DNA of 64,000 nucleotides from NCBI GenBank assembly GCA_036867785.1, contig CP145412.1:1550001-1614000 (forward strand), in the 5' to 3' direction. This document shows, in pieces, positions 10,625-59,296 of the stretch. Under the pieces are notes generated by a model. The model was given only the letters and a program-made list of their open reading frames with translations. It was not told where the DNA came from and did no database searches. The DNA is from Plasmodiophora brassicae. Its lineage: Eukaryota. The stretch's first letter is position 1. Each line of letters opens with the position of its first letter. Made by a program: the position numbers and the translations under genes.

Positions 10625-10718
10625 TGTGAGGACTGTCCGGAATAAACCGAGAACCCCGCGACGGACTTCGCCAGTCCGTCAAAGCGTTCGTTGCATCAGC
10701 TTGCCTGATCGTGACATT
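10625..10718 (+). repeat. 94-bp direct repeat, copy 2
   Basis: Identical to 8609-8702; overlaps the start of the long transposase ORF. Confidence 0.9.
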
Positions 10719-13006
10719 GGCCGTTCCTCTACATACATTGCGGGGTACCAGCGCGAACGACGACGTCCATACTTCAGCGGCCGAGCAGGATTCGCGAGAC
10801 CCCCACTTGCCCCTTCCTGCTGGGCGAACCCATCATCTGCGACAGCATCCCGTGCACGAGGTTGCTACGCCAGCCGAGATCAATCCAGAGTGGCCGGATG
10901 GAAACATTTCGTACACCATATCTGTACCCACTGACGAATCGAAGGTTTCATACCTGAACACATCTTGGTCCATGGCGCGGTTCAGTACCTCCTCTGTACG
11001 AGTGAAGAAGTCATGTCTGGGGGTGTTTGTCTGCCCAGTGGACGGATGCGGGTTCACCGTTCGTCCCCAACTGCCCAAGCGGCGCTCAAAACACTGTCGT
11101 CCTGCGCCTTGTCCTGCGACATGCTCTGTGCACAATCGTCCAGTTTCTCATATTGCATGTCGGGCAATTTTAATCATCGAGAAAACTAGCGACAACCCCC
11201 ATATCATTACGTTCATTCATCAGGGATACCATCGTCATCGCAAACCGGAAGCCATACGACCAAGTGCCCAAGCAATGGATGAACTCGCTCATATCATTCA
11301 TACGGCGCCCGAACTCACTCCCAAGCAGCTACAGATGGGTACAATGACTCGACCAGCATCAGGTGAGATTCATCACAGCCTGGCGAACATTGACCGCCTC
11401 AGGTACATCAAGACCAAACTCATTAAGCCGCCCACTTCATCCTTGTCTGAAGTACTAGCGTTTGAAAAGGAAATCGGTGAAAAGTTGTTCGTATGTATCG
11501 GTTCCGATGCGCTTTGTCTGCAGACAGCGTTCATGCAGGAGAGGGCAAGGGCTTGCGAATCTCCGATGCAGTCCGATTCCATCGAAGGCATCCTTGTCGA
11601 TCCCATACTTCCTGACGCAAACGTAACGATGACGACTGCATACTGTCCAATGCTTTCGCGTCACGTCCCGTTATTGATATCGATCCTGACTGGCAAGAGT
11701 GCTGCACATTACCGCCGGCACTTCCTGACTCTCTTCAGCACAATGGAAATGCCGGTAGATGTGGACGCATGGGAACACCAATTCCCGGGCAACACCAGCG
11801 ACTTTTCAGACGCTGAACGTGCTGGGTTTGAGGCAGCTCTCAGGGCGCACTGTCATTTGGATGATAATGCCGTTCTGGCGCTCGATCATTTCTACCGCTA
11901 TTGCGACGTGCATTTTAAGCGGACCCTAAGCCGTGTATCTCGAAACGCTGGTGTCATCCACCCTGATGACAAGGCATTATTTTACGAAACAGTTTTGTCG
12001 CTCACGATTGTAGTCGACCCGATTGATTTCGCGAACCGGCTACAGTTTCTGTATCAGCGATTTCCGAAAGCACGGCGATGGCTCGATTGGCATCTCCACG
12101 AGCTGAGAGGTCGACACATCTTTCCGGCTCTGGCAACAGGGGACATCTCGCTGTTGCCAAATAACACGAACGCGCAGGAAAGCGTTGGCGGCAGTCTAAA
12201 ACGCTGCTGCAACGGAAAACAATCCATCGTCACCGTCATTCCCCCCATATACTTGTTCGTCAAACAAATCGCGCAGGCATACACCAATGCTTGTCTTGGC
12301 ATTCAGGAGCGGTACAATCCTAGTAGATCTAGATCTACAAAGAAGACTCGGTCTGATGGCAGGCCCCCGGATACAACGAAAGACCTTCTTCGAAAGCGGA
12401 GCGAACGTCAAAAGGAATCGGTTCATCGATCTGCATCGGTCAACGCCATCAAGAAACTACGAGGGCGCCCACCTGGGAGCACGAATACGATACCCAAACT
12501 TGGATCATTAGTGGATTGGAAAACATTCGGTATCCCATGGGGGTTCACCTCGAACGGTGTCCGGTTTACCAATACGTGCCCGATGGACACGGGCCTCATG
12601 ACTCTCTACCTGCTCTTCGAGTACGGGAAGCTTCGGTTGCCGTCAGGTGACAACGACAGTCCTGTGCTCGGTCAGGTCATGGATCTTATTTCACAGGAGA
12701 GGTATAATGAGGCGCGTCTGCTGTGGCTCGCAGGCAATCACGTGCCGACGATACCGAAGTCCAATATTGTGGACCTGTTTGGCACTGTGGAAGATATTGT
12801 GCATCGCTTCGTCCCGAATTTGTTCTTTTTTACCGTTGTGCAAAAGTCTGATTGCACATCCGAGCACTGTCCAGAGCGATCGAATCGCGTTGAGATGCGC
12901 CGACCAGGTTTCGAAGTAATTCCAGAGGACCTTGACGTCGACGATTCTTCCATGACTGTTCAACAATCTATGGTGGATTCATTGATTGGCGACAGGGTCA
13001 CGCGCT

Positions 13007-13182
13007 TGTGACGTCCCAACGGTGATGGTATATCAGCCGTGTAGTATAATCGTCTGTGTCCCCGACCTGCAGCTCCCACGGACGCCGTGCGGACTCCGTG
13101 CGCACTCCGTGCATGTCCGTCATTCTTAGGGCGGCCTAGCCGGATCACAGCTATTCTTGTCTTATAGCTTGGAGCCGGCACA
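13007..13182 (-). repeat. 3' LTR (176 bp)
   Basis: Identical to 18096-18271; preceded on the minus strand by the polypurine tract. Confidence 0.96.
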
Positions 13183-13380: not shown

Positions 13381-16300
13381 CTACTGGACTCCTTCCGCCT
13401 TAAGTAACTCCTTAACCTCATCAGCAAGGTGATGTTTCTCCTTCCTCATCCTGGCGGCATGTGCCTTCACCAGCTTCGGTACATCCATCGCCAACCTGCA
13501 GATTGGCTCCCATGAATCCTCCGCTTCAGAGAAACCCTTCCATCCGATCAACAATTCCAATTCCCCTGTCTCCGGACTGTGCCTGCAGTCCTTGAAGACT
13601 TCAATGGCGAAACGCTCATTGTCATAATCCATCTGTCGCTTCAGTTCCTCAGTGGCATTCACTTTGCCATGTTCATAGAGGCGAACGCGGTCCCCGTGAA
13701 CGGTTCGAGTGTCCGTCTCATTGAACATATTCCTCACCTCGTAGGTGTAGTTCTCGTGGCTATCAGTTATTTGATATAGGCCCCGCCACTTCATAAAGAG
13801 CTTCTTGCCCGGAACCTTACCCGGTTCAGGCAATCCGATGAGTACATAGTCACCGATCTGAAAGTTCGGTGCAGTTGCTCGTCGGTACGCGTCGCTCCTC
13901 TTCCTGTGTACGGCTCGGATTTTCTTCCATTGCTGCACTGCTCCCTTGTGCATTTCATTCAGCGACGTCTGCAATTGCATGACTAGCTCCTGAATATGCT
14001 CCTTTGAGAGTGTAGCTTCCCCATACTTCTCATCCCCTGGCCTCTTGAACACTTGCTTCAGCGGGTTGTCTGGTTGACGTCCCATCATCACTGTCACTGG
14101 CGCATTCCCGTTGGTACGCGCCTGCGACCTGTGATTGATCGTGTGTTCAATGTTGTGGTTCAACCATGGCCAATCGTATTTGTCCCACTGCAATTCAGAC
14201 AGAAGTGCTCTGACTAGTTGCAAGTAGTTCCTGTTGATCACCTCAATTGATCCATTACTGTAATGCCCATAGGCAACAGTCGGGTGATGAGCAAATCCAC
14301 ATCGACGCGCCAGTTCCTTCACAACGTTTGCCAGAAAGCAAGACGCCATGTCTGACACCATCAACTCAAACGTTCCGAAGATAGCCCTCCATTCGAGCAG
14401 TGCCTCTACAGTGGTTTCCGCATTGGGTGTATGGTCAGGAGTAATCCTGACCATGCCAGACAGATCATCCCTGATTATCAGGTTCCATTGCAGATCATGT
14501 CTTCCGCCCTTCTGAGCCGCCATCATGTATAGCCAATCCAAGTGAATCACCTGATTCGGCCTAACACCATGAACAGCTGTTCCCAATGGCCTGGGAATCC
14601 TAACCCCGCCCCTTGTCGGTAGACAGTTCAAACACGCGTTGCAGAACGTCCTCATGTCCTCATCGCAGTGTGCCCAATGGCAGAACTCCCCCAACTTCCT
14701 CAACGAGGCCTTCAGTCCTAGATGCCCACTGTTTCCGCCCGCATGAGCAATAGCGCATAGCTGCAGCTTCAGCTCGTTGCATTCGTCTGGTATGATCACC
14801 TGTCCCTTCCCTGTGACGAAGAGATCATCACCATTCTTCGGTCGTTTCGTTCCTCTGAGCCATTTCCTCTGAGCCTTACGGATTTCGTCCACGGTCGGCC
14901 ATTGGAATTCCTTCCTTTGTAACGGCCGTACCCGATATCCGTCCTCAATTTGAAGCGTTATCCTCCTGATCGTGCGTACCTCTAGGTGCTGGTCATCAGG
15001 CCCACCGTCCGGTGCACCCCACCGCGTCATAAGATCCGACCACACATTGTCCTCCCCCGCAATGTGTTCAATGACGTAGTGGACCCTCTGTATGTCCAGT
15101 GCCCATCGTTGCAGTTTCTGCGCCGTTGGCTTTGACACGTCCGTTGGTGAGAATATCCTCACGAGATTCCTATGATCGGTAAACAAACGAAACTGCTCGT
15201 TGGTTGTAACGAGATAGTCCAGTTTGTCAATCCCATCCTTGATCGCGAACCCTTCCTTCTCCACCGTGGACCAGTTCCGCTCTGGGCCCGCGAACTTGTG
15301 TCCGACGAAACCCAGCGGTTCATGTCGCTGCCCATGCACTGGTTTACCCAAGTCCTCAGGCGGAATCTGTGTGACTACCGCCGCGCTGTTAACCTCATTT
15401 GCATCTGAGAATAGGCATTGGATCCGGTCCTTTCGCGGGTACGCTAGTTGGACCGTGTCCGCCACTGCCATCTTCAGTTTCTCGAATGCCAGCGCATGTT
15501 CGGGTGACCATCCATATTTGCACAATCGCACCCTCCTGGCAATGGCTTTCGTCCTGCCAGGTTGGTCCTTCATTGCATCCTCGTATATCCTCTGTAACAG
15601 GTGTACCTTCCTGTTGTACTCAGGGATGGACCTACTCATCCACTGAGTTGCCATAAGGAATTGTTGCAAGTCCCTTGCCGTCCTCGGCTGTGGTATCGCC
15701 ATTAAAGCCTCAATCCTAGCAGGATCGTGCCTTACCCCTTCTGGCGTGAATATCCTTCCACAGAACCGAACCTCTGTTGTGAAGAGCTCACACTTCTCCA
15801 CGTTGAACTTGATGCTGTGCCGTTCGGCTAGCATCAGAGTCCGTTCCAACGTTCGGAACCAATCATCCTCCCTTTGGGCATGCCCCATTAGATCATCGAT
15901 CCATATGATTAGTTTGTGGAACATAAGTTCCCCGAACACCTCAAACATCCTCCCTTGATACTGAGGGGCGGAGTTCATTCCCCCCTGCATCGACCTCGTT
16001 GGCTTATACACCCCCTTATCTGTCATGAAGGAGAAGATCTCCTGACACGCTTCATCCAGCGGCATCATCCAGAAGCCTTTGAACGCGTCTAGCTTAAACC
16101 AGAACCTCGAGCCTGCCAGGTTCCTCAGTATCGCCTCCTGATGTGGCATAGGCCACGCCACGGCGACACATTTGGCATTAACAGCTCTGAGATCAACACA
16201 GAACCGCTTTCCGCCCCCTGGCTTCGTCACCACCACCACCGGTGAAGCCCACTTCGCGTTGTAGTTTTCAACGACTAGGCCATACTTCTTCAATTGGGCG

Positions 16301-18048
16301 ACGAATTCCTCCATGAAAGCACTGTCCTCCATACTGTACTTTCTGGCTCGGCACCTGTAAGGTTCCGCATCCGGTTTCAGCTCCGTGACAAATGGTGTAA
16401 CCCTGGCTGGACCATCAGGTCCAATGCTCATACGCCAAACGTCCCTATATCTTCTGACGAGTTTCCGAAGCGATTTCCCCATCGCTTGCGGTAGGCCATT
16501 CCTCAATGCGCGCTCGACCATCCCGTCCATCTCCCTTTCCAGGGAGTCTGTGGAATCGGTTCCGATCCTCACATCCTCTGTTTCCTCTTCCTCCCCTTCC
16601 CAGAGAGGTGGCATCTCGTTTGCCATATTGTGCACTTCATCCATGACGTCATTCCCCTTCTTCGGCGTGCTCATAATGAGTACGTCCAGGGCCTTCTTTG
16701 GGTGGATACCCAAGTCGTCCAACAGCCTCTCCCCTAGGATTATTTCCTTTTCAGGAATGTCCCATACAAGGCATCGGCGCCGGCGAGTGATCAGTTCGCC
16801 TGCCGTCGTCGTCAGTCCCAGATCCAGTATCATCACATGGTAGGCTGTGTGCTTCGTTTCTCTGTCTACCAGACAGAACGTTTCCGGCTTCTGGAGGTTC
16901 TCCATTGTTAACAATGGGTCCCGCTCCATTAGCTCGCGCGCTATGGTCAATGGCATCAGAACGTCAACCGATGTCGCTCCACTGTCCAGAACCCCAACGT
17001 AGTCTTCCTCATGTCCGTTTACACGAACGACTACTTGGTCCCCTGTCCTCTGCGCCCCCTCCGACACTCTTCCTACCACTGGAAGCCATGGGTACTCTGA
17101 CAAGTCGTCATCTTTATCAGATTTGGCCTTACGGGGTCCATCCCTTCCCGTTGGCCCCTTGCGGCGATCCTTCAGCAGGTCTGCGACCTGCTTCTTGGTA
17201 GGCTTCTTCGGGCAACGAAACGCTGGATGTCCAACCTCGTCACAGTTGAAACATCGCAGGTCCTTCCGGTGTCGTTTCGTGTCCCGGCCTCCATCGCCTC
17301 CTTCATCCGTCTGCGCCCCTCGCTTCTTTGGGGTGGGTTTGACCTTTCCCTTCCCCTTGCCATCCTCACGTCCCGGCTCCATGTACAACATCGTCTCCTC
17401 ATACGATGCAGCCCGTTCCTTCAGCACCCGATAGAATTCCAAAGGGTCCTTCTGGAGATCGGTCTGGCGCTTCATGACGAGGGTCCGCATGAGCGCTTGT
17501 AAACCGGATGGGCGCACAGCACCCAGTAGGTACTTGACCAGGTTCTTCCGTCCCTCGCGGGACGTGAAGAGGTCCTGCCACCCGTTGCGCGCGACCAATT
17601 CCTCGTACTGCTGCACGAGGTTCACGACCCTTGCCGCTGGTGTGGTGATGGTCAGCTTCATCGCCAGCTTCCGCATCTCCCGGTCGATGTTCGCGTCCGT
17701 CGAGCGATCCTGCTCGAGATGCCTCTTCATCCAGTCTATCAGGTCGCTCTCCGTCACCCCCTCGGCGTCCGTGCCGAGTTCCCACTTGCAGATCGCCCTG
17801 AGCAGACCGGGGTCGATCATACTCCTCACTGACCGTGGGATCTGGCCCTTGGCATTCGGATCGTCCCGGAAGTGATTCCGATACGTCTTCAGCTCGGCCA
17901 TGAACGTCGTGACGGCCTTGCGGTCCATGCTCTTCAAGGTCGGCGCCTTGTTCATCTGCAGGACGATCGTTGAGCCTTGCACGCTCTGTCCTTGTTGTCG
18001 ATCATCGACGTCATCTTCCAGCAGCATCTCCTGCGCGGTGGCCACCAT
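13381..18048 (-). CDS. Gag-Pol polyprotein (CCHC knuckle, aspartic protease, RT, RNase H, integrase, chromodomain), 1555 aa
   Basis: CFNCDEVGHPAFRC; LDSGA; KLDAFKGF and WIDD; FSDAN, TDHRNL; H..H..CNAC with DDE integrase; LIGWKGFSEAEDSWEP; start taken at first ATG after the 5' LTR. Confidence 0.95.
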   Translation of the reverse strand: MVATAQEMLLEDDVDDRQQGQSVQGSTIVLQMNKAPTLKSMDRKAVTTFMAELKTYRNHFRDDPNAKGQIPRSVRSMIDPGLLRAICKWELGTDAEGVTESDLIDWMKRHLEQDRSTDANIDREMRKLAMKLTITTPAARVVNLVQQYEELVARNGWQDLFTSREGRKNLVKYLLGAVRPSGLQALMRTLVMKRQTDLQKDPLEFYRVLKERAASYEETMLYMEPGREDGKGKGKVKPTPKKRGAQTDEGGDGGRDTKRHRKDLRCFNCDEVGHPAFRCPKKPTKKQVADLLKDRRKGPTGRDGPRKAKSDKDDDLSEYPWLPVVGRVSEGAQRTGDQVVVRVNGHEEDYVGVLDSGATSVDVLMPLTIARELMERDPLLTMENLQKPETFCLVDRETKHTAYHVMILDLGLTTTAGELITRRRRCLVWDIPEKEIILGERLLDDLGIHPKKALDVLIMSTPKKGNDVMDEVHNMANEMPPLWEGEEEETEDVRIGTDSTDSLEREMDGMVERALRNGLPQAMGKSLRKLVRRYRDVWRMSIGPDGPARVTPFVTELKPDAEPYRCRARKYSMEDSAFMEEFVAQLKKYGLVVENYNAKWASPVVVVTKPGGGKRFCVDLRAVNAKCVAVAWPMPHQEAILRNLAGSRFWFKLDAFKGFWMMPLDEACQEIFSFMTDKGVYKPTRSMQGGMNSAPQYQGRMFEVFGELMFHKLIIWIDDLMGHAQREDDWFRTLERTLMLAERHSIKFNVEKCELFTTEVRFCGRIFTPEGVRHDPARIEALMAIPQPRTARDLQQFLMATQWMSRSIPEYNRKVHLLQRIYEDAMKDQPGRTKAIARRVRLCKYGWSPEHALAFEKLKMAVADTVQLAYPRKDRIQCLFSDANEVNSAAVVTQIPPEDLGKPVHGQRHEPLGFVGHKFAGPERNWSTVEKEGFAIKDGIDKLDYLVTTNEQFRLFTDHRNLVRIFSPTDVSKPTAQKLQRWALDIQRVHYVIEHIAGEDNVWSDLMTRWGAPDGGPDDQHLEVRTIRRITLQIEDGYRVRPLQRKEFQWPTVDEIRKAQRKWLRGTKRPKNGDDLFVTGKGQVIIPDECNELKLQLCAIAHAGGNSGHLGLKASLRKLGEFCHWAHCDEDMRTFCNACLNCLPTRGGVRIPRPLGTAVHGVRPNQVIHLDWLYMMAAQKGGRHDLQWNLIIRDDLSGMVRITPDHTPNAETTVEALLEWRAIFGTFELMVSDMASCFLANVVKELARRCGFAHHPTVAYGHYSNGSIEVINRNYLQLVRALLSELQWDKYDWPWLNHNIEHTINHRSQARTNGNAPVTVMMGRQPDNPLKQVFKRPGDEKYGEATLSKEHIQELVMQLQTSLNEMHKGAVQQWKKIRAVHRKRSDAYRRATAPNFQIGDYVLIGLPEPGKVPGKKLFMKWRGLYQITDSHENYTYEVRNMFNETDTRTVHGDRVRLYEHGKVNATEELKRQMDYDNERFAIEVFKDCRHSPETGELELLIGWKGFSEAEDSWEPICRLAMDVPKLVKAHAARMRKEKHHLADEVKELLKAEGVQ

Positions 18049-18095
18049 CGCGTCCTTCTTTGAAACCTTCCCCGAAAGGATGTTCAAGAGATCTC

Positions 18096-18271
18096 TGTGA
18101 CGTCCCAACGGTGATGGTATATCAGCCGTGTAGTATAATCGTCTGTGTCCCCGACCTGCAGCTCCCACGGACGCCGTGCGGACTCCGTGCGCACTCCGTG
18201 CATGTCCGTCATTCTTAGGGCGGCCTAGCCGGATCACAGCTATTCTTGTCTTATAGCTTGGAGCCGGCACA
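18096..18271 (-). repeat. 5' LTR (176 bp)
   Basis: Identical to 13007-13182. Confidence 0.96.
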
Positions 18272-20704
18272 CGCTGCACGCAGAGTGTGGACGAAGCATT
18301 TAGGCTTTCGAAGCCTGATAGTGCATTTCGCGTGCTGGACGATAACCAGGGGGGCGCATACATGTGTTCGGGGGTGCGCACGCTCTCCCGCTGGAAGTTC
18401 GTGATTGGGCCACCTTTGATACTTGAATTCGAGTACGTGCCTCGCGCTTGCATAGCTAAGCCATCCTGTACCATCACGTTGAACGGCACGACATTCCGGT
18501 TAGCAGCAGTCATATTCGGTTCGGGAGGACATTTCACGTCCATTATCTACATTGGGGGTGCCTGCTTGTTCTATGATGGTATGTCGAAAACAAAACTAGT
18601 GTGGCTTAAGACGCGGCCCGAAAAGGAGAAGTTCCGCCACTCCAAAGTGTGCCGCGTTTGGTATCAACCCGATCAGACTGTGCCGCCATCAAGTCCGATT
18701 CCGTCTAGGCGCGACGAAGGTGCAGATCTGCTGCTGCCGACGATAGTGCCTAAAGGCCCTCGTTCTCCTCCAGCAGAAAAGGTCATGTCGCCTGTTGAGG
18801 CATTGGATGATCCGCCTCCTGTGCATCATGACGCGTTGTCACGACACAGTCTTCCTTGGGGATTCCGTTACGGGTAAGCAGTTAGCAGTTAACACAGAAG
18901 CGAACGGCAGTTGATGTTTCATGTCCAGAGCCTTTGACGCAGTCAACACCTGCGCGGTGGACACAGGCCTAATGACGGTGTTCATCTTACATGTACGTTT
19001 TCACTCGTGCTGCGACTGCGCCTCGCTGACCGTCGATGGATACCGATATTTTAATAGAAATACTGGGGTCTACATATACCTGCAAGCCACCCCCAATTGC
19101 TGGAAGCAGTTACACTTATTGGGCAAGGCTCTCATGAGGAAGCCCGATTCCTGTGGGCAACGCGGTGCCTAGGCTATCCGTCAACCGGCCACCACGACAT
19201 GTGGAACAACTTTGGAGACAATTTCTCCAATGTTGTTCCAGACTTGTTCAGGATGGTTATCGCGGATCGGCTACTGTGTTCGAATTCTTCGTGCCACAAC
19301 CGAGTTGCACTAAGGACTCGGGAGTGCGCTCTACTGGACTTTGATTCCCGGAACATCATGCAGCTGAGCTCTTCGGCTGTAACCCAGGCGATGGTTGATG
19401 CATACCTCGGCAGGGATTTCGATTCCCAAAATGGGTTCCTGACATGCAGCGCAATCGACATGACCTGTGTCGATCCGCAGGAATCTCACGTTGCTGCCTG
19501 CTCAGGGTCTTTGTCGCTGCAATCTTACGTCATCCAGCACTATCCGCCACTGGTAGAAATTATTCTTCACTCCGACTTACCACAACGCAGCGCCGCGTGG
19601 AATACTCCACAACCGGTGACACTGACCTTCGGAGCATGGCAATATGACCTTGCCGCCATGGTCGTGCGCAATTGTCGCCGAAACCACTTCGCATCGCTCG
19701 TCCTCCTGAGAGGGGAATTTGTGTATTACGACGGCATGATGAGTCCCTGTGTGCGCAAGGCGGATAGTAGAACGCTGAATGGACACGTGCTCGGGCGCTT
19801 ATGGTATCTTAAGACTGATCGACCGGCTCGAAATGCGGATACGAGTTCAGAGCAAACCCCCCGTCCTGCTACCCGCGTTGTGCCCCCCGACAGTCGAAAT
19901 GATCCGCCTACACCCTCGGAAACGTTGCCGTCAGTTTTCCCCACCATGTCTGATCAGGGGCGGTCACCTGGGACCAGCGATCACAGAAGCGAGCAACGTG
20001 GTCAACAGAGGCGCAAACGTTATCCGCTGGGGATGTCTGTTCAACAGGTTTCGGTCAGAGGCCCTAAGCCGCTTTGCCAAACCTGCGGGAACGCCATAGA
20101 GCGGGACCAGCGCCGGTTGGTTATTGTAACCCGAAACGAGCTGCGTCAATGGAATAAGCAGCTGTCGTACCATTTGGCGGACGAATGCCTGACGACGGGA
20201 CTGACAGCTGCTCAGAAGGTAGAGCTGACGACATTGCTGGAAGCAGACGATATTTTGCGCACCCAGCTGGCCGGGACTGGGTACCTCGGAATGACATTGT
20301 GGGTGACAGTTGATGGACCTATGACTGTCCAGGCATGAGGAGCGCGATCGGCGCGAAACACGAACCCCCTGTCCTCCCTTCGATCCCGCCAGCGCGCCGT
20401 TAATGGCGAACAAGAAACAGCGTGTTGAACGAACGTAAGTGATCGTGTCTTGTCGGATGTTTCCTGCGGTTTCGGCCTGTTCAATACAGACCTTATAGTG
20501 CTGTGAATACGTTTGCGCTACGCGGTTAATCTTTCAAAGCTGTTCTTTTCGCCGAACGAATCCGTCCGTTATCTGTCTGCGCCGAGACGGGCACAATTCC
20601 GTCGCTGGCATTGACGGTACGATTGCATGTGGTTCATTGTAGGCACCCTCCCGAAGCCCGCCAAACTACATACCTTAAGTACGTCAGTGTTCGCCAAGGT
20701 TTTA

Positions 20705-40220: not shown

Positions 40221-43200
40221 TCACGCGCGCAGCTGTCGCGTGATGTTCCTGACGAGCGCCCTGGCCTGGGCCACGATGCGGGCGCCCGGCAGGTTGAAGT
40301 CGGCGGCGTTGCTGGCGATCAGGTCGAGGTCGGCGACGACGGCATCGACGCGGCGATAGTACCGATTGGACAGGCGCCGCTCGATCAGGCCCAGGTCCAT
40401 GGGCAGCGCGATCATCCGGTCGTACACCGGGAACTCGTCCAAGGGGACCGGATCGCGGAAGTGGCGCGCCGACGCGTACGACCGCCACCGGGCAATCACC
40501 TGCCCGGCTCGGTCCAGGCGGTCCGCGTCGTCGCCTGCGATGCCGTCGTCGTCCTGCGCGGCGCTGGATTCGGCGACGCGATGCAACTCCCAGGGCGACA
40601 CGCGTTGCAGGACGGCGTGGCGCTGATGGCGCGATACGCGCCGGTCGTCGTCGTCGAACCGAACGACGACGCAGTTCCATGGCGACGTGCGGCAGTTGCC
40701 GATCTCGACGATGGACCCGCTGTACCACGACGACACGTCGGCGTACCACATGCGGAACCGGTCGCCGACCTGCCACCGGGCGCGCACAGCGCCCTCGACG
40801 ACCCATTCGGGGACAACAAAGTCGGGCTCGTCGATCGGGTAGAACGGTATCAGGACCGTCGGCGACGACGCGTTGCCGGGCCTGGCCTCGTCATCATCCG
40901 CGGGTTCATCGGCGCCGGCCTGGTCGTCGAACTGGACGGACAGGTCGGCGACAACGGGCTGGCGCGCCCCACGAAACCGCATGCGGTACGCGATGGCGAC
41001 AACGACGCCGAACAGGACCGGCGGCGGCGTGGCGTCGGCCGGCCAGGGCCAATCGGGCAGTTGCCGGGCGACGGTCGGCTCGAGCTGCGACAGGAACGAC
41101 CAGTGCCCTTCGCCGAAGTAGGCGACACGATCGCCGACCTGCGGGACGTACCCGCCGACGGGCGTGCCGGGCGCCTCCCGCTGGAGCCAGCGACGATCCG
41201 GGCCAGTGGCGCCCGCCTGGTCGCTGGGCGACGCCTGCGCGCGACGGCACCGCTTGCTGACACGGACGATGATCGGCTCGTCATCGGCGTCGTTGCCCGA
41301 CTCGGACGCCTGCGCCGCATCGTCGTCGCTGGCACGTCGCCGCAGGCGAGTGAACGACGGCCGATCGGGGGCGGGCGAGCTCGCCGGACTGGCCACACGA
41401 TGGCGAGCAGCGGCACCGGGTGGACGACGACGAACGCGAGGAAGGACGCGGTCGTCGGCAGAGTCGCTCTGGCTCGAACCCGACAGTGACCGACGAGGCG
41501 ACGGCCGACCACCACTGGCCCTACTTTCGCTCAGGCGCGGACGAATAACGACGTCGTCGTCCAGGTCGGTGTCGTCGGGCAGATCGTCGTCCGACGACGT
41601 CGCCTGGACGGAGTCGTCGTGCGACGACTCCGACGCCGTCGTGCTGAAGTCGTCGCTGGCCAGGGTGTCGGTGCCGGAGCGCCACGGGTCGTCGTCGTCG
41701 TCGTCGTCGACGGCGGCGGCTGCCTCAGCGACGAGCGCCTGGATGAACGCGGACGGCGGCGAGGCAGCGGGAGGCGCAGGCGGAGAGCTGGCGACCAGGT
41801 CGACGAGCTCCTCGACGCGAGGCGCCGTCCGGTGGCGGGTCTCCTCGCCGTCCTCGTCCGCATCGCTGCCCGCCTCGGGGAGCCACTCACGTTGCCGGCC
41901 CTGTTCGAGGTCGTCGGCGCGCGCCATACGTATTACATGACGGAGGCGTGCGACGCGGCCATACCAGCAGGTGCGCGGGCTGGATCACGTACGCCTCGAA
42001 GTCGGCATTGCAGAGCGTTCGCGACTGGAACGGCGCCGCGTGCATCGACGCGTCCGCCTGCGCGCGCGCACGTCAGCAATGGACGGCGTCGCGGAAGCGC
42101 CCCGCGTCACCGATTCGCTCAGGAAGAACTGGGCGGCCGGCACAACGGCGTAGCGTCGGCGGGAACCCGTCCCGAAGAGCACGAGGCGGCCCATGTCGCT
42201 CGTGGCACCTGCACCAGACGGCAACGTCAGCGGGTGCGCACAACGACGCCCCCCCCCCCCCCCCCCCCAACGCGGGCGCGCCTACACAGCCATTCGCCAC
42301 CGCTGGACACAGCACAGTCCACGAACCGATCTGTGGGCCACCTTGTTCAGCACAGGGGGAGGCACAACCGAGGGCAGGCAGCGCAACCCCAAACCCGACA
42401 TTGATCTGTGGCCGGGAACCGTGATACGATGGCGCCCGTGCGCGCGTCGACAACGAACGCCTGCCCGTCGGCCCCGACCGTCAGCAGGATGTCGCCGAGC
42501 GCGGGCTGGAGCGACACCGCCAGGACGTCGTCGTGGTGCAGGTGCTGGCGCCAGACGAGGGCGAACGGCTGCGCCGTCAGCGCATCCCACGCCTCGACGA
42601 ACGCGCCGTACGTGGTCACCAGGAGCCGGCCCCGGTCCGCCCAGATCAGCGTTGTCGCCCGGTCCGCCCGGCCATCCCGGCTGTCCACGACCGTGTGGCA
42701 AACGGCGAAGTCGCCGACGTCCAGCACGAAGACGTGGCCGAAGGCGGTGGCGACGGCCAGCTGCCCGGCGTCGTCGTTGAACACAGTGCAGACGATCTCG
42801 CCGGACGGGCTCAGGTCGACGTCGGCGCACGGCTCCGTCCAGCCCTGCTCGACGATCAGCGGCACCGAGTGCACGACGACATGGCCCGTGTTGAGGCCGA
42901 CGGCGATGAACGCGTTCGGCGCCCGCCCCACAGCGAGGGCGTTCGCCTCGCACGCGCCCGACGACAACCTCGGGTACAGGCCCGCGTCCACGTCGAAGTC
43001 GTCGCCCATCGAGCAGATCCGGCACGACCCGTTGTGCGTGATCGCCACGACGCGGTCGTCGTCGGGCAGGAACTGGACGCGCATGACCTCGCCGACCAGG
43101 TTGAAGACGCGCAGGCGCGTCCCGTGCCACAGCGACCAGATCGCGCAGGTCATGTCGCTGGACGCCGACGCGACCTGCTGATTGCACCGGGAGACGGACA

Positions 43201-51006: not shown

Positions 51007-51717
51007 TTAACAGCCGACTTCAGAGCAGGGCTTCCCGTCCTGGACCGTGTCGCTGGCCCAGATCGCCCTGTCGGGGTCGTACGTGACCAGGTTGCCATCG
51101 CTCTGCATGTCGAGGCGGAACGGGTTCCTGCCACCCTGGCTGTATCCCTCGCTCTCCCACAGCGGCAGATTGTCGCGGTCGTACAGGACCAGGTTGCCAT
51201 CGGCCTGCTGCATGAAGTAGCAGGGGCCACGACTGGCCTGCTCGCCCTTGTTCGTCGCCCAGATCGCGACGTCCTGCCCAGCGCGGTACACGACCGCATT
51301 GCAATCCTCCTGCATGATCAGCGTGAAGCGCCCGTCCTTGCTGCGAATGAACTGGTTTGGCGTCAGGCGCTGCCCTTCCTGCAGGGCACTTGGGATCGGT
51401 GCAGGGGTGGGCGCGGGCGTCGGCGCTGGTGTCGGCGCAGCGGTCGGCGCAGGTGTCGGAGCGGGTGTCGGAGCGGGTGTTGGCGCTGGGGAAGGCGCAA
51501 CGGTTGGCGCTGGGGCAGGCGCAACAGTTGACGTCAGCGTCTTCGCCTCGTTGTTCCCCATCGCGTTCGCGCCCGCCGACAGCGGCAGCGATTCAGGGCG
51601 GGCCGTCGACGGAAGCGGCGGGGACAGCGAGGCCAACGGGCAGTCCTGTCCACGAACGGTAGGCGCAGCAGCGGCCAGGGCGAGGACAGCGACAGTGACC
51701 AGGCGCGCGAGCGACAT
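51007..51717 (-). CDS. Secreted bulb-type (GNA/B-type) mannose-binding lectin with Pro/Thr/Ala linker
   Basis: Signal peptide MSLARLVTVAVLALAAAA; (PAPT)n; three QxDxNxVxY motifs (QEDCNAVVY, QADGNLVLY, QSDGNLVTY). Confidence 0.88.
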   Translation of the reverse strand: MSLARLVTVAVLALAAAAPTVRGQDCPLASLSPPLPSTARPESLPLSAGANAMGNNEAKTLTSTVAPAPAPTVAPSPAPTPAPTPAPTPAPTAAPTPAPTPAPTPAPIPSALQEGQRLTPNQFIRSKDGRFTLIMQEDCNAVVYRAGQDVAIWATNKGEQASRGPCYFMQQADGNLVLYDRDNLPLWESEGYSQGGRNPFRLDMQSDGNLVTYDPDRAIWASDTVQDGKPCSEVGC

Positions 51718-52094
51718 GGTTGCCGGAATTGGGGGTACGACGGGTAACGTCGGTGTTTGAGGTTGAACGGCGGATTTCGAATCTGGCTCGCCGTCACAAC
51801 GCCGGAACCTGCCTGTCACGACGAACATGACATCATGGCGTTCCCGTTTCGTCGTGAGTCACTCCCCCGGTCCGGAATGATGACCCATCCGACGGAAGCG
51901 GAGGGACTCGCCGGTCTCGCGAGCGCGCTTCATCGACGGTGCCGGGCTGTCTCGAGAGGTAACCGTGCGTCGCCCCTCCCGGCCCCTCGACGGGTACTTC
52001 TCGACCCTGCCGGTCGGCCAGGCGCGCCATGGCGTGTATTCGGTCGGGTTGACGGCGTGCGCGCGTCGCCGCTTCCGGCACAGGCGCTGGACTG

Positions 52095-55000
52095 ATGACG
52101 TCGCCCGGGAGGCGCGCCCGTGCCACCGCCGCTCAGCTCCAGCGCTTACCACCGCATGCTGCGACCGGGTGGTGGCATCGTGCGACGTGGGCGCGACGTC
52201 GACTCGTCTCGAGCAGGCCTGGTCCGCGCCATCAGGCGCCGTTGTCAGCGTACCAGGCGTTCCTCAGGTCGCCGTCTGTGCCGCTGGCGGTTCGCGCGCT
52301 GAAGCACGACGCCGACCCGCAGGCTGGGTGGGACGTGTTCCAGCACGTCGTGTCGTCGCCGGCGTTGGCGCCGCGCATCCCGTTCTTCCAGACGATGCTG
52401 ATGTTCTGCCGGCACCGCCTGCCCGGCAAGGCGCCCGACGTCCTGCGCGCTGCCCTCGACCGGGGCGTCGCTGTCAACGACACCCTGTTCTGCACGTTCG
52501 TCGGCGCGTGCCGGGCGGCCGACCCGCCCCTATGCCAGGACGTCGTCGACCTGTACGCGCGATGCGGGCCGCGATCGCACAACGTGATCGCCAGCGTCGC
52601 CAACGTCTGCCGCCTGGCCAAGCAACCGGGCCCTGCGCTGGGCCTGCTGCAGGACGCCGTCGATGGCGACGTCGAGTTCGGCGAGGTCCTGACGTCGGTC
52701 CTGTCGGCCTGCTGCGCCGACGCCCGGAGCGCGGCCGGCGCCGACGTTGCCCAGCGTCTCGTCGACCTGGTGCGCTCGGGGCGTATCCCGGCGTACGCCC
52801 ACAACCAGGCGATCTTCGGCAACCTGATCAAGGCGCTGCTGTCGCAGGCGCGGTTCGACGCCGCCGTCGACGTCACGTCCGTCATGGAGGGCGTCGGCGT
52901 GGCCCCGTCGTCGGTGACCTATACGCTCCTGCTGTCGTCGCTGATCAGGGCGGCCCAGCTGTCGTTGGCGATGTCGGTGTTCGAGCGCATGGCGGGTCGT
53001 CGGGTCGCCGTCGGCGTCCCCGTTTTCGCGTCGCTCGTGGCCGCGTGCAAACGCGCCGACGACGCCCGGCGCCACCTCGCCGTGCTCTACGATCACGCGC
53101 TCGCCAACCCGGCCCTGCTGCTGCACGACGACTTCGCCGCGTGCTCGTTGATATCCGCGTTCGACGCCGTTGGCCATCTTGCCACGGCAGAAGCCGTGTT
53201 CGCGCGCCGCTGTGCCGCGTCCGTCCCCGACGCGCCCGTCTTCATGGCCATGATGACCGCGTACGTTCGTCACAGCCGCAGTGGCGGGCGCCCCGCCGGC
53301 GACGTCGTCGGCAAGGCCCTGTCGGTGTTCGCCTCCATGGTCGAACACGGCGTCCCGGTGGACGGGCGCGCGTTCACCGCCCTGGTCTCGGCCTGCCGAG
53401 GGTACTCGCTGCCCGCCGTCCAGCGCCTGCACGACTACGCCACCGGGTCGCCGGCGCTGCTGGACGACGACTTTGTCGTCAGCGCGTTCATATCCGCCTA
53501 TGCCGACTGCGACGCGATTGTCGCCGCCGAACAGACGTTCCAGGCCCGGTGCGCTTCTGGACGTCCCGCCCCTGGCGAATGCGTGTTCAGCGCGATGGTC
53601 GCCGCCTACACGCGCCATGGCATGTTCGACGAGGGCATGCGCGCGTTCGAGGCGTTCCGGGCGTCGTCGTCGTCGTCGTCGCTGTCTGTCGAGGCGCACA
53701 CGACGGCGCTGTCGCTGTTCAGCAAGGCGGGCCGCATCGCCCAGGCCATGTCCGTCTTCGAGACGGCCCTGCGGCAGGGCGTCCGCGTTGACGGGCGCGT
53801 CGTCGCCGAGCTGGTCACCGCCTGCAGACGGGGCTCCTGCCGGGCGTCGCTGGACCAGGTCCACAGGCACGCGTCCGACCGCTCGTACCTCATGCAGGAC
53901 GACCGGGTCGTCAGCGCGCTCATCGCCGCCTACTCCTGTACGGTCGAGTCGCTCGCCGTCGCCGAGGAGGTCTTCGCGCGACGACGAGCCGTCGGCGCGC
54001 CCGGCGTCGTCGTGTTCAATGCGATGATATCGGCCTATGGCGGGCACGGGCGCCTGACGAACGCGACGGCGGTCTTCGACGACCTGAAAGGCGTCGGCGT
54101 GCCACCCAACGACGTGACGCTCTGTAGCCTGCTGTCGGCGTGCAATCAGGTCGGCGCCGTTCGCCTGGCGATGTCGATCGTCGACGAGTTCGAGCGCGCC
54201 TGGCGGATCCCGCCCCGGTCGCTGGAGACATGCACGACGCTGCTGTCGCTGTACTCCAGGGGGGACTGCCTGGCGGAGGCGTTCGCCCTGCTCGACGCCA
54301 TGGTGCAATCGGGGACGCCGATCGAGACGCTGGTCTTCTGCGGCCTGGTCGGCGCCTGCAGGCGCGGCGCCGACGTGGCCGGCCTGGCCCGCCTGCACCG
54401 GTACGCGGCGTCGACCGACCTGCTCGAGCACGACAACGTCGTCGCGTCGTTCATCACGGCGTACGGCGAGTGCCGCCGCGTGCCCGACGCCGAGGCCGTC
54501 TACCGCGACGCTCGCCGCCCGGGCGTTCACGCGACGACGGCCATGATTGGGGCGTACGGCCAGAACGGCCTGCCCGACAAGGCCGAGCGGTTGCTGGACG
54601 ACGTGCAGGCGGACGCGGCACCGCCCGCCTTGGCCTGCGTCGTCGCCGCCTACGGGCGCCTGTCGCTGGCCGCCGATCTGCGACGCCTGCACCGCGTCGC
54701 TGAATCGAAGGCGTTCCTGTCGGACGCGTTCGTCGTCAGCGCGTTGGCGGCCTCGTACGGTCGCTGCGCCGACTGGGCGTCGGTGCGGGCGATGCACGAC
54801 GTCGCCCGTCGCCATGGCCTTATGGGCGACGGCGGCGTCGTCAACGCGCTGATCTCCGCCTATGGGCAATGCGGGGACCCGGGCACCTCCGAGCGCCTGT
54901 TCGTCGCGTGCAGGTCGACCGCCGACCCGTCCGCCCTGTCCACGGTCGTCGCCGCCTACGGGCGCCTGTCCCAGCTGGCCGACCTGCGCCGCCTGCACCA

Positions 55001-56062
55001 GGTCGCCGCCGACGAATCGCTCCTGGCGCACGTCGCCGTCGTCAGCGCGTTCATCTCGTCGTACGCGCAGTGTGGCCAGCTGGCCGAATCCGAGCGCCTG
55101 TTCCGGGACCTGGTGGCGACGCCCGACACGACCACGTTCAACGCGATGATCGCCGCGTACAGCCATCACGCCCGGCTGACGAGCGCCCTGGACACGTACG
55201 AACGCCTCCAGCGGGCCGGCCTGAAGCCGAACGACGTGACGCTCGTGTCGCTGCTGACGGCCTGCAGCCACGTCGGCGACCTGCAGCGGGCGCTGGCGAT
55301 CACGGCCGAGTTCGCGACGGCATGGGGGATCCGGGTCGACGCCCGCCACACGAATTGCCTCGTCGACCTGCACGCCCGCATAGGCAACCTGGACGAAGCG
55401 GAGCGGTTCATCGGCGACGCGTCCGACGTGACGTCCTGGATGACGGTCCTGGGCGCCTGCCGCAAGCACGACGACCTGGCCCGGTCCGAGCGCGTCTTCG
55501 CGACGATCTGTCGCTGCCCGACAGCCCCGATGTCCTGTCGCACCTGCCGGCCGCCTACGTGCTCATGTCGAACGTGTACGCTGCGAACGGGCGCCTGGCG
55601 GACGTGCAGCGTCTACGTTGGGCCATGCGGGCCAGGGGCCTGACCAAGGTCCCCGGGCAGACGTCGCTGCTGCTGCCCGACCGCACCGTCCGCTTCGTGT
55701 GCGACGACGACAGGTACCGGTCGGATGCGGGCCTGCGCGACGCCCATGGTCGCATGCTGGAGGACCTGCGAGCGTCAGGGTACACCCCTGACTTGGGCGT
55801 CGTGACGAGGCGTACGTCGTCGGCCGACGAGGCGCGCGCGTCCGTCTGCCGTCACAGCGAGAAACTGGCGATCGCCTACGCCCTGGCAGCGCTGGCGCCC
55901 GGGGAGCCCATCTACGCGACGAGCAACCTGCGCGTGTGCCCCGACTGCCACGAGGTCACCAAACGCCTGTCGGCCCTGTACGCTCGCGACATTTACATTC
56001 GCGATGCGAACCGTCACCATCACTTCCGGGACGGGCACTGCTCCTGTGGCGACTATTGGTGA
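52095..56062 (+). CDS. Pentatricopeptide-repeat protein with E and DYW cytidine-deaminase domains; frame break near 55510
   Basis: Many PPR motifs (e.g. TTFNAMIAAYSHH, PNDVTLVSLLTACSHVG); E domain SWMTVLGACRKH / AAYVLMSNVYA; PG box, HSEKLA, NLRVCPDCH, HHFRDGHCSCGDYW*; split over two frames (52095-55643, 54869-56062). Confidence 0.92.
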
Positions 56063-56629
56063 ATACGAACGTAATAATATGGTATTCATATCGGACGCGG
56101 GGCGCGACACTGCTGCAACACGTCGACGATGGTAGCTATAGCTAGTTGTCGTTCAGTTTAGGGCACGACTCTGCCTCCTGTGCGCCGACTAGCTGGCGAA
56201 CGATATTGACCCTATCGAACGATCCAGTACCGCATGCATGTGGGGAACATGGGCCGGTGCCCGGGTTCACGGCCATCAATCGAGCTGTGTGGGCGTCCGT
56301 AATTCGTCGCTTCACATCTTACCGGTCGCTCGTAACCGCTGTCCAGATCGTGTTGTGTTTCTGCAGATGGTACACGAGCCGTCGCACGGAAACGACCAGA
56401 CGGCCACCCGTGGATCGTCAGTCCGTCACACAAGGCGACGATAAGTGGGCGGCGTCGGTCGACGGGACCTGCGTCATTTGGTGCTCACCCTACGGTCCGC
56501 AGTCGCAGAGATCGCTGTCTTCTATGACTGGGTGGGGGATCACCACCAACGTACCGTACCTCTGGACTGGCCACACAGCGCACCTGGGAGTGGATGCCAA
56601 AGAGAGGAGCACTTTGGCGCCGGCCAACG

Positions 56630-59296
56630 ATGACAACTATCCGTCCTGCCCTGTTCGTTTCGCTCCTGTTCGCCCCGCTGGCCAGCGCGTTCCAGAACCT
56701 GTCGCAGTGTGCGATCTGCGACGGCTCCAATGCCGGCAACGTCGTCATCCAGATCAGCCCCGACGGCTGTACGTGTCCCGGGCGCGTTTGTCTCGACCAT
56801 GTCGATGTGCTGACACTGTCCCACTCCCCACAGCCGTCCTGACAGCGCTGCCCACGCCGGCGTACGTACCGCCTGCCTGCGTGCCTGCCTGCGCACGTGC
56901 TGGGCGTTAACGGTGGGCGCTCGTGCATGACAGGACGTCCGACGAGCAGTTCGTCATGATCATGAACCTGCTGAAGACGCAAAGTCCAACGGCGGCCGTC
57001 CTATACATGGACGTGATCTGGGCGGGCGACATGGCCGGGTACCTGTCCGACCTGGGCACGCTGCTGACCCCGCAGCAGCTGGATGCGCCGATCCCGTTCG
57101 AGCAGGACTACGCCACCGTCAAGGGCGTCCGGGTCGGCGCGCCCTACTTCATCGACACGGGCTTCCTGTACTATCGCAAGGACCTGCTCGCCAAGTACGG
57201 GTACTCGGGGCCGCCGACGACCTGGGACGAGATGGAGGCGATGGCGGCCACGATCCAGGCCGGCGAGCAGGCGCACAACCCGAACTTCTGGGGCTACGTC
57301 TGGCCGGGCGCCGCCACCGAGGGCCTGTCCTGCATCCTGCTGGAGGTGTTCGCGACGCACGGCGCCGGGACGATCGTCGAGGAGGATGGGACCGTGTCGT
57401 TGAACAACCCGCTGGGCCTGGCCGCCCTGACGCGCATGGTCAACTGGATCGGGACGATATCGCCGCCCAGCGTCACCAGCATGAACAACCCGACGTCGCT
57501 GGCCGCGTTCACGGCCGGCAACGCGGCGTTCCATCGCGACTGGCCCGGGGCGCTGTCCACGATCAAGGGGACCTTCGTCGAGCACGTCACCGGGATCACA
57601 CTGGTGCCCAGCAACGGCGGATCGACCAGGCACCACGGGACGCTCGGCGGGTGGATGGTCGGCGTGAACAAGCACGCGGTGGCGCAGGCCCGCGCCGGCC
57701 AGCTGGTCGCCGAGCTAATCAGCGACGCGCACCAGATCGCCGAGTTCTACTCGCACACCAAGATGCCGGTCAGCAGGGACATCTACATGGGCCAGGGGCT
57801 GTGCGCCCCGTCCAACCCGAACGTGACGCAGATCTGCGACGTGGGCACGATCCCGAGCGACTACCTCGTGGCCAGGTGGTCCAAGGTGGCCTCGCCCAAC
57901 TACCAGGCGACGTCGGCGATGGTGTACAGCGCGGTCAACAAGGCCCTGCTCGGGGCCGTATCGCCCAGCGAGACCCTGGCCTTGCTGGAGTGCCAGATCA
58001 CCCTCCGGCTGCATGGTGAAGGCGCCCTGCCGATGCAGTGCCTGACCGAGATCGCGATCAGCACCTGGGCGCTGACCACGAACCTCGTCCTGACCGCCAT
58101 CGCCCTGGTCGTCGTGACGGCGGCCGCCGTCGGCATCGCGGTCCACAGGAACCATCCCGTGATGAAGGCCGCCGCGCCCCTGTTCTGCCTGACGATTTGT
58201 ATCGGCGGCATCGTCCTGCTGGTGTCCAACATCGCGGCGGGCCTGCACCCGGCTCGGTACCCGGGCGCGTGCTGGGCCACGGCCTGGCTGACCTGTATCG
58301 GGTACGTACGTCCGACGACGACAACAACGGTGCCCCCCGTCTGGTGTGTTGTCGATGATGCCGACGGGGCGACGTGCACAGGTTCATGGTCATGATGGGT
58401 GCCCTGTTCGTCAAGCACTGGCGCGTCGGGCAGATCTTCCAGCAGGTGAAGTCGGGCCGGGCCATGGGCGTCGTCAAGATCACCAATGGCGACGTCGCCA
58501 AGCGCGTCGCCCTGCTCGTTGCCCTCGACGTCGTCGTCATCGGCATCTGGATGGGTGCTGACGCGCGCGACCGCCGACGCGGGCAGACCTGGTCTGACAG
58601 GGAACGCTGTACTGTGCAGGCGCCCAAGGGTCCAGCCCGTCCTACGCGCGCGTCATGCAAGCGTCGACCTGCCCGTGCCAGAACGCGGATCTGCATCAGT
58701 TCGTGACGGCGTGCACGCTGAACGCCGGCGGGCTGTGGACCGTCGTCGTCCTGCACGGCATCGTCGTCGTCTGGGGCACTGTCATGGCCATCCACACGCG
58801 TAGCATCCCCATGCTTCTCTTCAACGAATCGGTACGTGGAGGGTGCCGGCGCGGGAGGCAGTACTGCTCGCTGACAGGCAACGCGGGCGTGTCCCCCAGA
58901 AATTCATGGGCCTCACAACGTACAACATCGCGCTGATCATGGTCCTGACCGTGCCCGTGATGGTCATCGCGGAGGCGAACCCGTCCATGCAACTCATGGT
59001 CCGGTCGGTGGCCTGCGTCCTCGTCGTCACCCTGACGATCGTCGTCCTGTTCGGCTACAAATTCTACCTGATCTTCTCCATGACGCCCGACCAGATCACG
59101 TCGCTCACCGTACGTGACGCGCTCGTGGTGCCGGGTCGGTTCGCTTGCTGAGCGCGCCCCGCCCGCGTAGAAACGCACCGTGATGGACGCTGGCACCGCC
59201 GGCAAAGGCGACGACCCCGACGTTGCCGGCGTGTCGGTGGCCGCCTCAGGGCGTCCAACGGCGGCTGGTACGACCAGGCCAAACAACCACCTCTGA
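56630..59296 (+). CDS. Class C (7tm_3/GABA-B-like) GPCR with N-terminal bacterial-type ABC sugar-binding domain (multi-exon)
   Basis: Signal peptide; DVIWAG, APYFIDTGFLYYRKDLLAKYG, PPTTWDEM, EGLSC, TLGGW; then RNHPVMKAAAPLF, ALFVKHWRV..IF, FNES-KFMGLTTYN. Confidence 0.82.

Follow-up and report, generated by a model that had tools for sequence, protein, structure and literature searches.

The PLS-class editing factors of land plants, represented by structures of OTP86 (7o4e/7o4f), DYW1 (7w86), and a synthetic pentatricopeptide repeat (PPR)-DYW protein with RNA (9kfx), are built in the order (P-L-S)n-P2-L2-S2-E1-E2-DYW. We found the same order in a gene at positions 52095 to 56062 of a 64,000-nucleotide stretch of Plasmodiophora brassicae DNA (contig CP145412.1, positions 1,550,001 to 1,614,000 of the forward strand; the whole stretch is called the window below). 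P. brassicae, the agent of clubroot, is not a plant; it is an obligate intracellular parasite of Brassicaceae and belongs to the Phytomyxea within Rhizaria. DYW-type PPR proteins are rare outside plants, where they serve as markers of C-to-U editing in organelles and of gene flow from plants. We judge it probable that the intact allele of this gene is a mitochondrial, site-specific C-to-U editing factor in a PPR-DYW family; the frameshift interrupting it in the window's strain is real.

Plant-type DYW proteins are also found in other non-plants, including Naegleria/Acrasis, Physarum, Acanthamoeba, Balamuthia, and bdelloid rotifers, where, according to the accessible text of two studies, they are usually read as horizontal transfers (PMC13386178, PMC4202320). 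Among Rhizaria, the paradinids (Ascetosporea, Endomyxa) are likewise parasites with plant-type, predicted-mitochondrial PPR-DYW proteins, and in the accessible part of the report on them these proteins occur together with mitochondrial C-to-U editing; A-to-I editing was described as well (Yabuki et al. 2025, PMC11946409). The same part of that paper states that C-to-U editing had never previously been reported in rhizarians, and does not mention Plasmodiophora. The two systems differ in several ways: paradinids have one and three DYW sequences, compared with dozens in P. brassicae; their DYW domains have a deletion in common with fungal DYW domains; and their editing was shown by RNA-seq, whereas the P. 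brassicae system is known here from genes alone (PMC11946409). A 2026 survey counted 31 DYW domains in Rhizaria, and its main text, so far as it is accessible, never names Plasmodiophora (PMC13386178); these 31 may include the P. brassicae genes described here. In the accessible text of the 2019 report on the nuclear and mitochondrial genomes (PMC6823432), neither “PPR” nor “pentatricopeptide” appears, and “RNA editing” occurs only in the title of a reference. DYW-PPR proteins of protists, Rhizaria included, are already known, and the proteins of the P. brassicae family are already annotated; our full-text literature searches found no paper treating this organism's own DYW or PPR genes.

The top database match of the window gene was the hypothetical protein PBRA_008312 (P0001, 1235 aa), with 98% identity across the E2-DYW part. 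This match to a P. brassicae protein identifies the window as nuclear DNA of the clubroot agent, and by the same comparison the locus is the orthologue of PBRA_008312. An earlier description made from the letters of the window (the sequence-only reading) had proposed a plant-style PPR-E-DYW gene in an apparently non-plant protist and had named a land-plant source as a possible refutation. The identity with P. brassicae excludes that source, and the Pfam domains, PDB matches, and predicted fold described below agree with the proposal.

The window gene and the land-plant factors have in common the HxE, CxDCH, and HxF..CSC motifs, the terminal DYW, and, as predicted here, the same fold; the E2-DYW part is colinear with that of 9kfx, with one gap over 171 residues. 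Identity to the land-plant factors is 37 to 45%. Balamuthia DYW parts, at 49 to 60% identity to plant ones, are far more plant-like than those of the P. brassicae family. Unlike the land-plant factors, the window gene encodes a family-specific N-terminal module of ~300 aa before the array, its S2 motif has 29 residues rather than 32, and its E1 motif has ~6 additional residues. The residues that follow PG also differ, and Pfam E+ (PF20430) is absent from the domains listed for P0001. Its array has roughly double the length of the arrays in the paralogues, and the gene is frameshifted in the window allele.

For domain searches, the gene was divided into frame A (52095 to 55508, 1138 aa) and frame B (55508 to 56059, 184 aa). 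Frame B matched Pfam DYW_deaminase (PF14432) at 4.8e-31 over the entire profile (positions 1 to 93 of 93; 106.9 bits, cut-off 24) and E_motif at 1.2e-9 (38.7 bits, cut-off 27.3). In an alignment of 46 sequences, the invariant columns include H116, S117, E118, C144, D146, C147, H148, H171, C178, S179, C180, and W184, all of which are kept here, and the HxE(x)nCxxC signature, the CSC, and the terminal D182, Y183, and W184 followed by a stop are all present. The sequence-only reading had described a PPR array, an E domain, and a complete DYW domain with HSE and CPDC zinc ligands and a terminal DYW, all of which Pfam and the alignment bear out.

Sequence matches of E2-DYW in the PDB were 9kfx (2.2e-40), 7w86 (4.1e-25), and 7o4e (3.7e-21). 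An AlphaFold2 model reached a predicted local distance difference test (pLDDT) score of 90.7 and a predicted template modeling (pTM) score of 0.83, and Foldseek placed it with 9kfx (2.6e-17), 7o4e (4.6e-11), 7o4f (1.5e-10), and 7w86 (1.2e-8). The six best PDB matches were all DYW structures, with other cytidine deaminases far behind, and target-normalised template modeling (TM) scores were 0.79 to 0.86 for isolated DYW domains. In the model, the predicted fold is that of the solved plant DYW domains.

Upstream of the deaminase, frame A matched Pfam PPR_2 (2.1e-53) and PPR (2.7e-53). The motif register was taken from the synthetic PPR-DYW protein (P0124); small hidden Markov models (HMMs) derived from it recovered C-terminal motifs only, and an iterative family HMM was used in their place. 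It delineated 28 PPR-like motifs in blocks of 29 to 44 residues that follow one another in the order L-S-P. The arrangement is that of plant-type PLS proteins: P, L, and S motifs of alternating length follow in turn, and the series closes with P2-L2-S2-E1-E2; in the intact reading, E1 occupies aa 1112 to 1151, E2 aa 1152 to 1185, and DYW aa 1186 to 1322. Toward the DYW end, the pairs of residues at position 5 and the last position of the S and P motifs are N/D, N/N, S/D, N/D, and S/D. We take N/D, N/N, and S/D to be canonical base-specifying pairs under the plant PPR code, by which these motifs would predict a target of roughly 5′-G-U-n-G-Y-n-U-(3 nt)-C.

Short paralogues (641 to 848 aa) match the N-terminal module, which also contains a Pfam PPR_long match at aa 176 to 331, and residues 945 to the end. 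Residues 346 to 944 of the window gene are additional to these paralogues and are internally repeated: aa 567 to 744 align with aa 945 to 1111 at 41% identity over 160 aa (score 236, compared with 32 ± 5.5 for shuffled sequences). By this comparison, the unusually long PLS array is one that was lengthened through internal duplication. At the other end of the protein, the first 60 residues contain 11 Arg and no Asp or Glu, and no acidic residue occurs before position 72, which agrees with the Arg-rich, acid-free, presequence-like N-terminus of the sequence-only reading.

The window allele does not hold these parts in one frame. Frame A ends at a stop soon after the break, and a second open frame (54869 to 56062, plus strand) carries the C-terminal end, ...CSCGDYW*. 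The two meet at 55508, where one base is missing, and the sequence-only reading, in describing a PPR array of about 1,300 aa, had tacitly joined two frames rather than a single open reading frame (ORF); a protein of ~1322 aa, most likely the intact length judging from the two frames together, requires stepping over the gap. The reference protein P0001 reads through this point without interruption. We aligned Logan contigs from four sequencing runs (X7, X10, X14, and X20) over 51900 to 56300; X20, a DNA run from a divergent isolate with ~50 differences, has one additional base behind 55507 that restores a single frame. The PPR array and the DYW domain are in one uninterrupted frame in the P0001 and X20 alleles and not in the window allele. 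There are two natural alleles at this locus, and the window's strain carries the frameshifted one. The deletion falls inside E1 and leaves E2-DYW out of frame. As read from the frames, the window allele can yield only a 1182-aa PPR protein that would lack the deaminase, and it is most likely null or weakened, with a putative loss of function.

Comparison of the two alleles listed 36 coding differences for X20 relative to the window, with 12 more on the aligned stretch outside this listing. Among the differences listed, 16 were non-synonymous and 9 synonymous upstream of the break, compared with 4 non-synonymous and 7 synonymous downstream. When the four amino acid differences in E2-DYW were polarised against relatives, they had no clear direction.

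Coordinates of the gene's features in the window, counted from its first letter
Feature	Position	Strand	Details
Frame-A ORF	52095..55643	+	1182 aa; presequence-like start, N-terminal module, PLS array, first part of E1, 45 out-of-frame codons, stop (ORF list, Pfam)
Presequence-like N-terminus	52095..52241	+	aa 1-49; composition heuristic only
Family-specific N-terminal PPR module	52242..53129	+	aa 50-345; phmmer, pairwise alignments to P0003-P0006 and P0238
55-nt GT..AG stretch	52268..52322	+	skipped in one X7 contig only (joint depth 7.4, side 26)
PLS-type PPR array	53016..55427	+	aa 308-1111; L-S-P blocks, then P2 (1012), L2 (1047), S2 (1083)
In-frame GT..AG stretch, 261 nt	54348..54608	+	aa 752-838, PPR motifs L745, S780, P811; intron in the PBRA_008312 model
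E1 motif, split by the frame break	55428..55546	+	E1 HMM from P0124, 21.9 bits
Frame break	55507..55508	+	one base fewer than X20 and P0001; base 55508 common to frames A and B
E2 motif, frame B	55547..55648	+	E2 HMM, 23.9 bits; Pfam E_motif; aligned to 9kfx
DYW deaminase domain and stop, frame B	55649..56062	+	HSE 55853-55861, CPDCH 55937-55951, terminal DYW

The window gene read through the break differs from P0001 by 21 residues and by 87 additional residues, which form an 87-column gap in the alignment. The additional stretch is in frame and consists of regular PPR motifs, and the X7, X10, and X14 contigs continue through it without a joint, so that the splice is not supported by any contig. 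On these grounds, the public PBRA_008312 model probably removed a false intron and is short of 87 residues. A second GT..AG stretch, of 55 nt, falls in a coding part that is also conserved in the paralogues; cutting it out would disrupt the frame, and unspliced contigs were present in X7, X10, and X14. A colinear contig from a run guessed to be RNA suggests that the gene is free of introns over 52320 to 56097, in keeping with the sequence-only reading, which had called it nearly intron-free. None of the runs listed as covering this stretch is recorded as RNA. Cover by X7, X10, and X14 ends at about 56038 to 56097 while the DNA run X20 continues, a weak hint that the transcript ends there. Short-sided joints and cross-matches of 90 to 95% among the contigs were read as paralogous loci and rejected as introns.

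The window gene belongs to a large family in P. brassicae that we defined by a ~300-aa N-terminal module homologous to aa 50 to 345 of the window protein, which itself contains the module. Members were counted through protein databases rather than in the assembly. Whereas a word-indexed search had given 2 proteins only, an exhaustive phmmer search with the module against 1.84 billion representatives (50%-identity clusters) found 67 of them at E<=1e-30, and in almost every one the match lay near the protein's own N-terminus. We examined 71 family proteins, comprising the 65 best new matches together with P0001, P0003 to P0006, and P0238. A member named Plasmodiophora brassicae was present in 29 of the 30 clusters looked up, and many of the P. 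brassicae proteins, which are scattered over many different large contigs, are annotated as “DYW domain-containing protein.” The exception among the 30 clusters was P0005, a 662-aa relative with the same module and an intact DYW domain. The amino acid make-up of P0005 is very different (GARP 0.18, FYMINK 0.30), and the family therefore seems, on this compositional evidence, to exist also in at least one other, AT-richer organism.

An E2-DYW part reaching the C-terminus was found in 40 of the 71 proteins, and the H, E, C, and C of the HxE..CxxC signature were all kept in 21 of these 40. In 12 DYW domains the catalytic Glu is the only one of these residues to be replaced (V, D, T, C, P, or A stands in its place), while in others zinc ligands are lost as well, a pattern that suggests that many members are catalytically dead. 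Within the 64-kb window, the gene described here gave the only DYW match. Among the 65 family proteins that start with Met, 25 have presequence-like N-termini (at least 5 Arg or Lys and no more than 1 acidic residue among the first 40 positions), and a signal-peptide-like hydrophobic core was found in none by a composition heuristic; several of the surveyed models are N-terminally truncated.

By analogy to plant DYW-PPR factors, the intact protein would be imported into the mitochondrion, where its PPR array would read the RNA stretch directly 5′ of one target cytidine and the DYW domain, with its HxE and CxxC zinc site, would deaminate that C to U. A mitochondrial location and editing activity are the most likely assignment given the architecture, the conserved residues, the predicted fold, the N-termini, and the paradinid precedent.

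Several observations weigh against the assignment of this gene as an editing factor. One or more of the H, E, C, and C residues are missing from 19 of the 40 family DYW domains (P0239 to P0302 set), from which it follows that not every member is a deaminase and that the family may serve other roles. The PG box keeps P49 and G50, but the residues after PG depart from the plant pattern (9kfx), and the P and the G themselves vary inside the P. brassicae family. Our view of targeting comes from a crude rule on composition rather than from a trained predictor, and the X7, X10, and X14 runs that provide the colinear cover have an RNA origin that is only a guess. Clear decay is not seen in the DYW part after the break; its 4 non-synonymous and 7 synonymous differences fit either a recent deletion or continued constraint on this part. 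Full-text literature searches found no report that the mitochondria of P. brassicae carry out C-to-U editing.

The protein, or the family as a whole, could instead act as PPR proteins that stabilise or process RNA or promote its translation, and the DYW domain would then be kept as an RNA-binding or structural module. The degenerate DYW domains and the lack of an editing report speak for this explanation, at least 31 of the 71 family proteins lack an E2-DYW part that reaches the end, and the window's strain tolerates a DYW-less allele. We nevertheless regard a role outside editing as unlikely, since none of the invariant catalytic and zinc residues is missing from this particular member, which also retains the terminal DYW, and since non-synonymous differences predominate only upstream of E2-DYW in the listed allele comparison. 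The same architecture accompanies C-to-U editing in plants and Naegleria. It is also paired with editing in the paradinids, according to the accessible part of PMC11946409.

Returning to the reading as an editing factor, a genome with dozens of such genes suggests, as far as gene content can indicate this, that editing takes place at multiple sites and that the gene is not a stray one. We propose only tentatively, with slightly less than even confidence, that P. brassicae runs plant-like, multi-site mitochondrial C-to-U editing with ~40 or more DYW-type PPR genes. To our knowledge, few organisms other than plants and bdelloid rotifers would have a set of DYW genes as large as ~40 or more. In plants, factors without a DYW domain recruit an active deaminase in trans, and if the proposal is true, the roughly half of the P. 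brassicae DYW domains in which the catalytic Glu or a zinc Cys is gone would have to do the same. Strains would then differ in their sets of factors, of which this frameshift is an example, and hence in the sites edited. Published mitochondrial gene models of P. brassicae, which may be wrong at the protein level, would need RNA-level correction. With a family of dozens in the clubroot agent, mitochondrial editing in Phytomyxea can be put to a direct test in public RNA and DNA data. The family also adds to the paradinids a second case from Rhizaria, which bears on whether the DYW genes had a single or a repeated plant origin.

A frame break of this kind, a single-base length difference within a short C run, is a typical form of assembly or sequencing error, and the gene might be intact in the window's strain. 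Moreover, the best-matching DNA runs (X1 to X6) are possibly the window's own source, and the contigs that we compared came from X7, X10, X14, and X20. Contigs from X7 (record 23, 52320 to 56097), X10 (record 6, 55257 to 56038), and X14 (record 14, 55257 to 56070) span the break, however, and these runs, which come from three separate studies, are identical to the window across 55508, with 0 differences and 0 gaps. The additional base in X20 comes with ~50 other differences and therefore marks a different allele. Since the deletion is identical in three studies and absent from X20 and P0001, it is a genuine allele, and we consider an error very improbable. The frameshift can be viewed as a natural knock-out that separates isolate lineages; it is a possible lineage marker and a possible built-in control in locating the target site of this factor.

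We also asked where the family came from. The sequence-only reading had regarded DYW-PPR proteins outside land plants as sporadic and had considered the lack of introns compatible with lateral acquisition. A maximum likelihood (ML) tree built from 55 E2-DYW parts united the six family rows closest to the window gene in a single clade (100/100), whose stem measures 1.27 changes per column, and in a FastTree phylogeny all 36 family DYW rows fell on one side of a branch. In both trees, which were built without Naegleria, Acanthamoeba, Physarum, fungal, or paradinid DYW sequences, the P. brassicae family grouped with neither Balamuthia nor Adineta. The DYW phylogeny that had been suggested recovered the family as one clade and named no donor lineage; the backbone of the ML tree lacks resolution.

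A recent horizontal transfer of the gene from a Brassicaceae host is conceivable for a parasite that lives within host cells, and an approximately unbiased (AU) test did not reject a tree joining the family to four Brassicaceae DYW domains (lnL difference 3.52, p-AU 0.383). Given this result, the tree can neither name nor exclude any donor. Identity of the window DYW domain to plant domains is nevertheless just 37 to 45%, compared with 49 to 61% to the paralogues; the family stem is long; and the four Brassicaceae rows are nested in a 12-row angiosperm group (support 91/88). There are also dozens of dispersed paralogues with an N-terminal module of their own, whose length was covered by none of the plant matches listed, and the GC content at third codon positions (GC3) of the gene, 0.91, is native-like, with neighbouring genes at 0.75 to 0.93. 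We therefore think a recent acquisition from the host highly unlikely. On present sequence comparisons, the window gene is a member of a large native family and not a lone or stray acquisition, contrary to the idea of a sporadic gene gained by recent lateral transfer; an old transfer from some plant lineage could still lie behind the family.

We give almost no weight to the idea that the family consists of effectors that the parasite sends into host cells, where mitochondrial or plastid transcripts of the host would be their targets: plant-like editing factors in an intracellular plant parasite and the strong regulation of host PLS-PPR genes in clubroot (PMC13247141) would suit it, but the accessible text of that study deals with host genes only, and family N-termini are presequence-like in 25 of 65 cases and signal-peptide-like in none.

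The neighbours of the gene fit a protist nuclear genome and include a Ty3/Gypsy-type pol, a bromodomain protein, a solute-binding/7TM receptor-like gene, and a secreted-looking repeat protein. An Rfam scan of the window gave no matches. The pol gene is a 1721-aa ORF (13384 to 18546, minus strand) with reverse transcriptase, RNase H, and integrase zinc-binding domains, and it sits in a low-GC section of the window (GC 0.54, GC3 0.64). Beside this retroelement, a 793-aa ORF (10630 to 13008, plus strand) has a GCM-motif match (6.1e-8; 33.1 bits, cut-off 25). The GCM DNA-binding domain is known chiefly from animals.

Immediately upstream of the PPR-DYW gene, at 51010 to 51858 on the minus strand, lies a gene for a secreted-looking protein with a hydrophobic N-terminus and an Ala/Pro/Thr repeat, which is encoded by a 12/24/36-nt tandem repeat at 51396 to 51530; its B_lectin match is weak (1.4e-5; 26 bits, under the cut-off of 32.4). 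The ORF at 40224 to 41984 (minus strand) combines a bromodomain (2.3e-16) with a match to ARF_AD, the ancillary domain of auxin response factors (9.6e-7; 29 bits, cut-off 27), a plant-type domain in a gall-inducing plant parasite. On the other side of the PPR-DYW gene, at 56911 to 58392 (plus strand), a bacterial-type extracellular solute-binding domain, SBP_bac_1 (9.6e-22), is fused to the start of a class-C 7tm_3 domain (profile positions 12 to 84 of 251), and the remainder of this receptor is presumably encoded by further exons.

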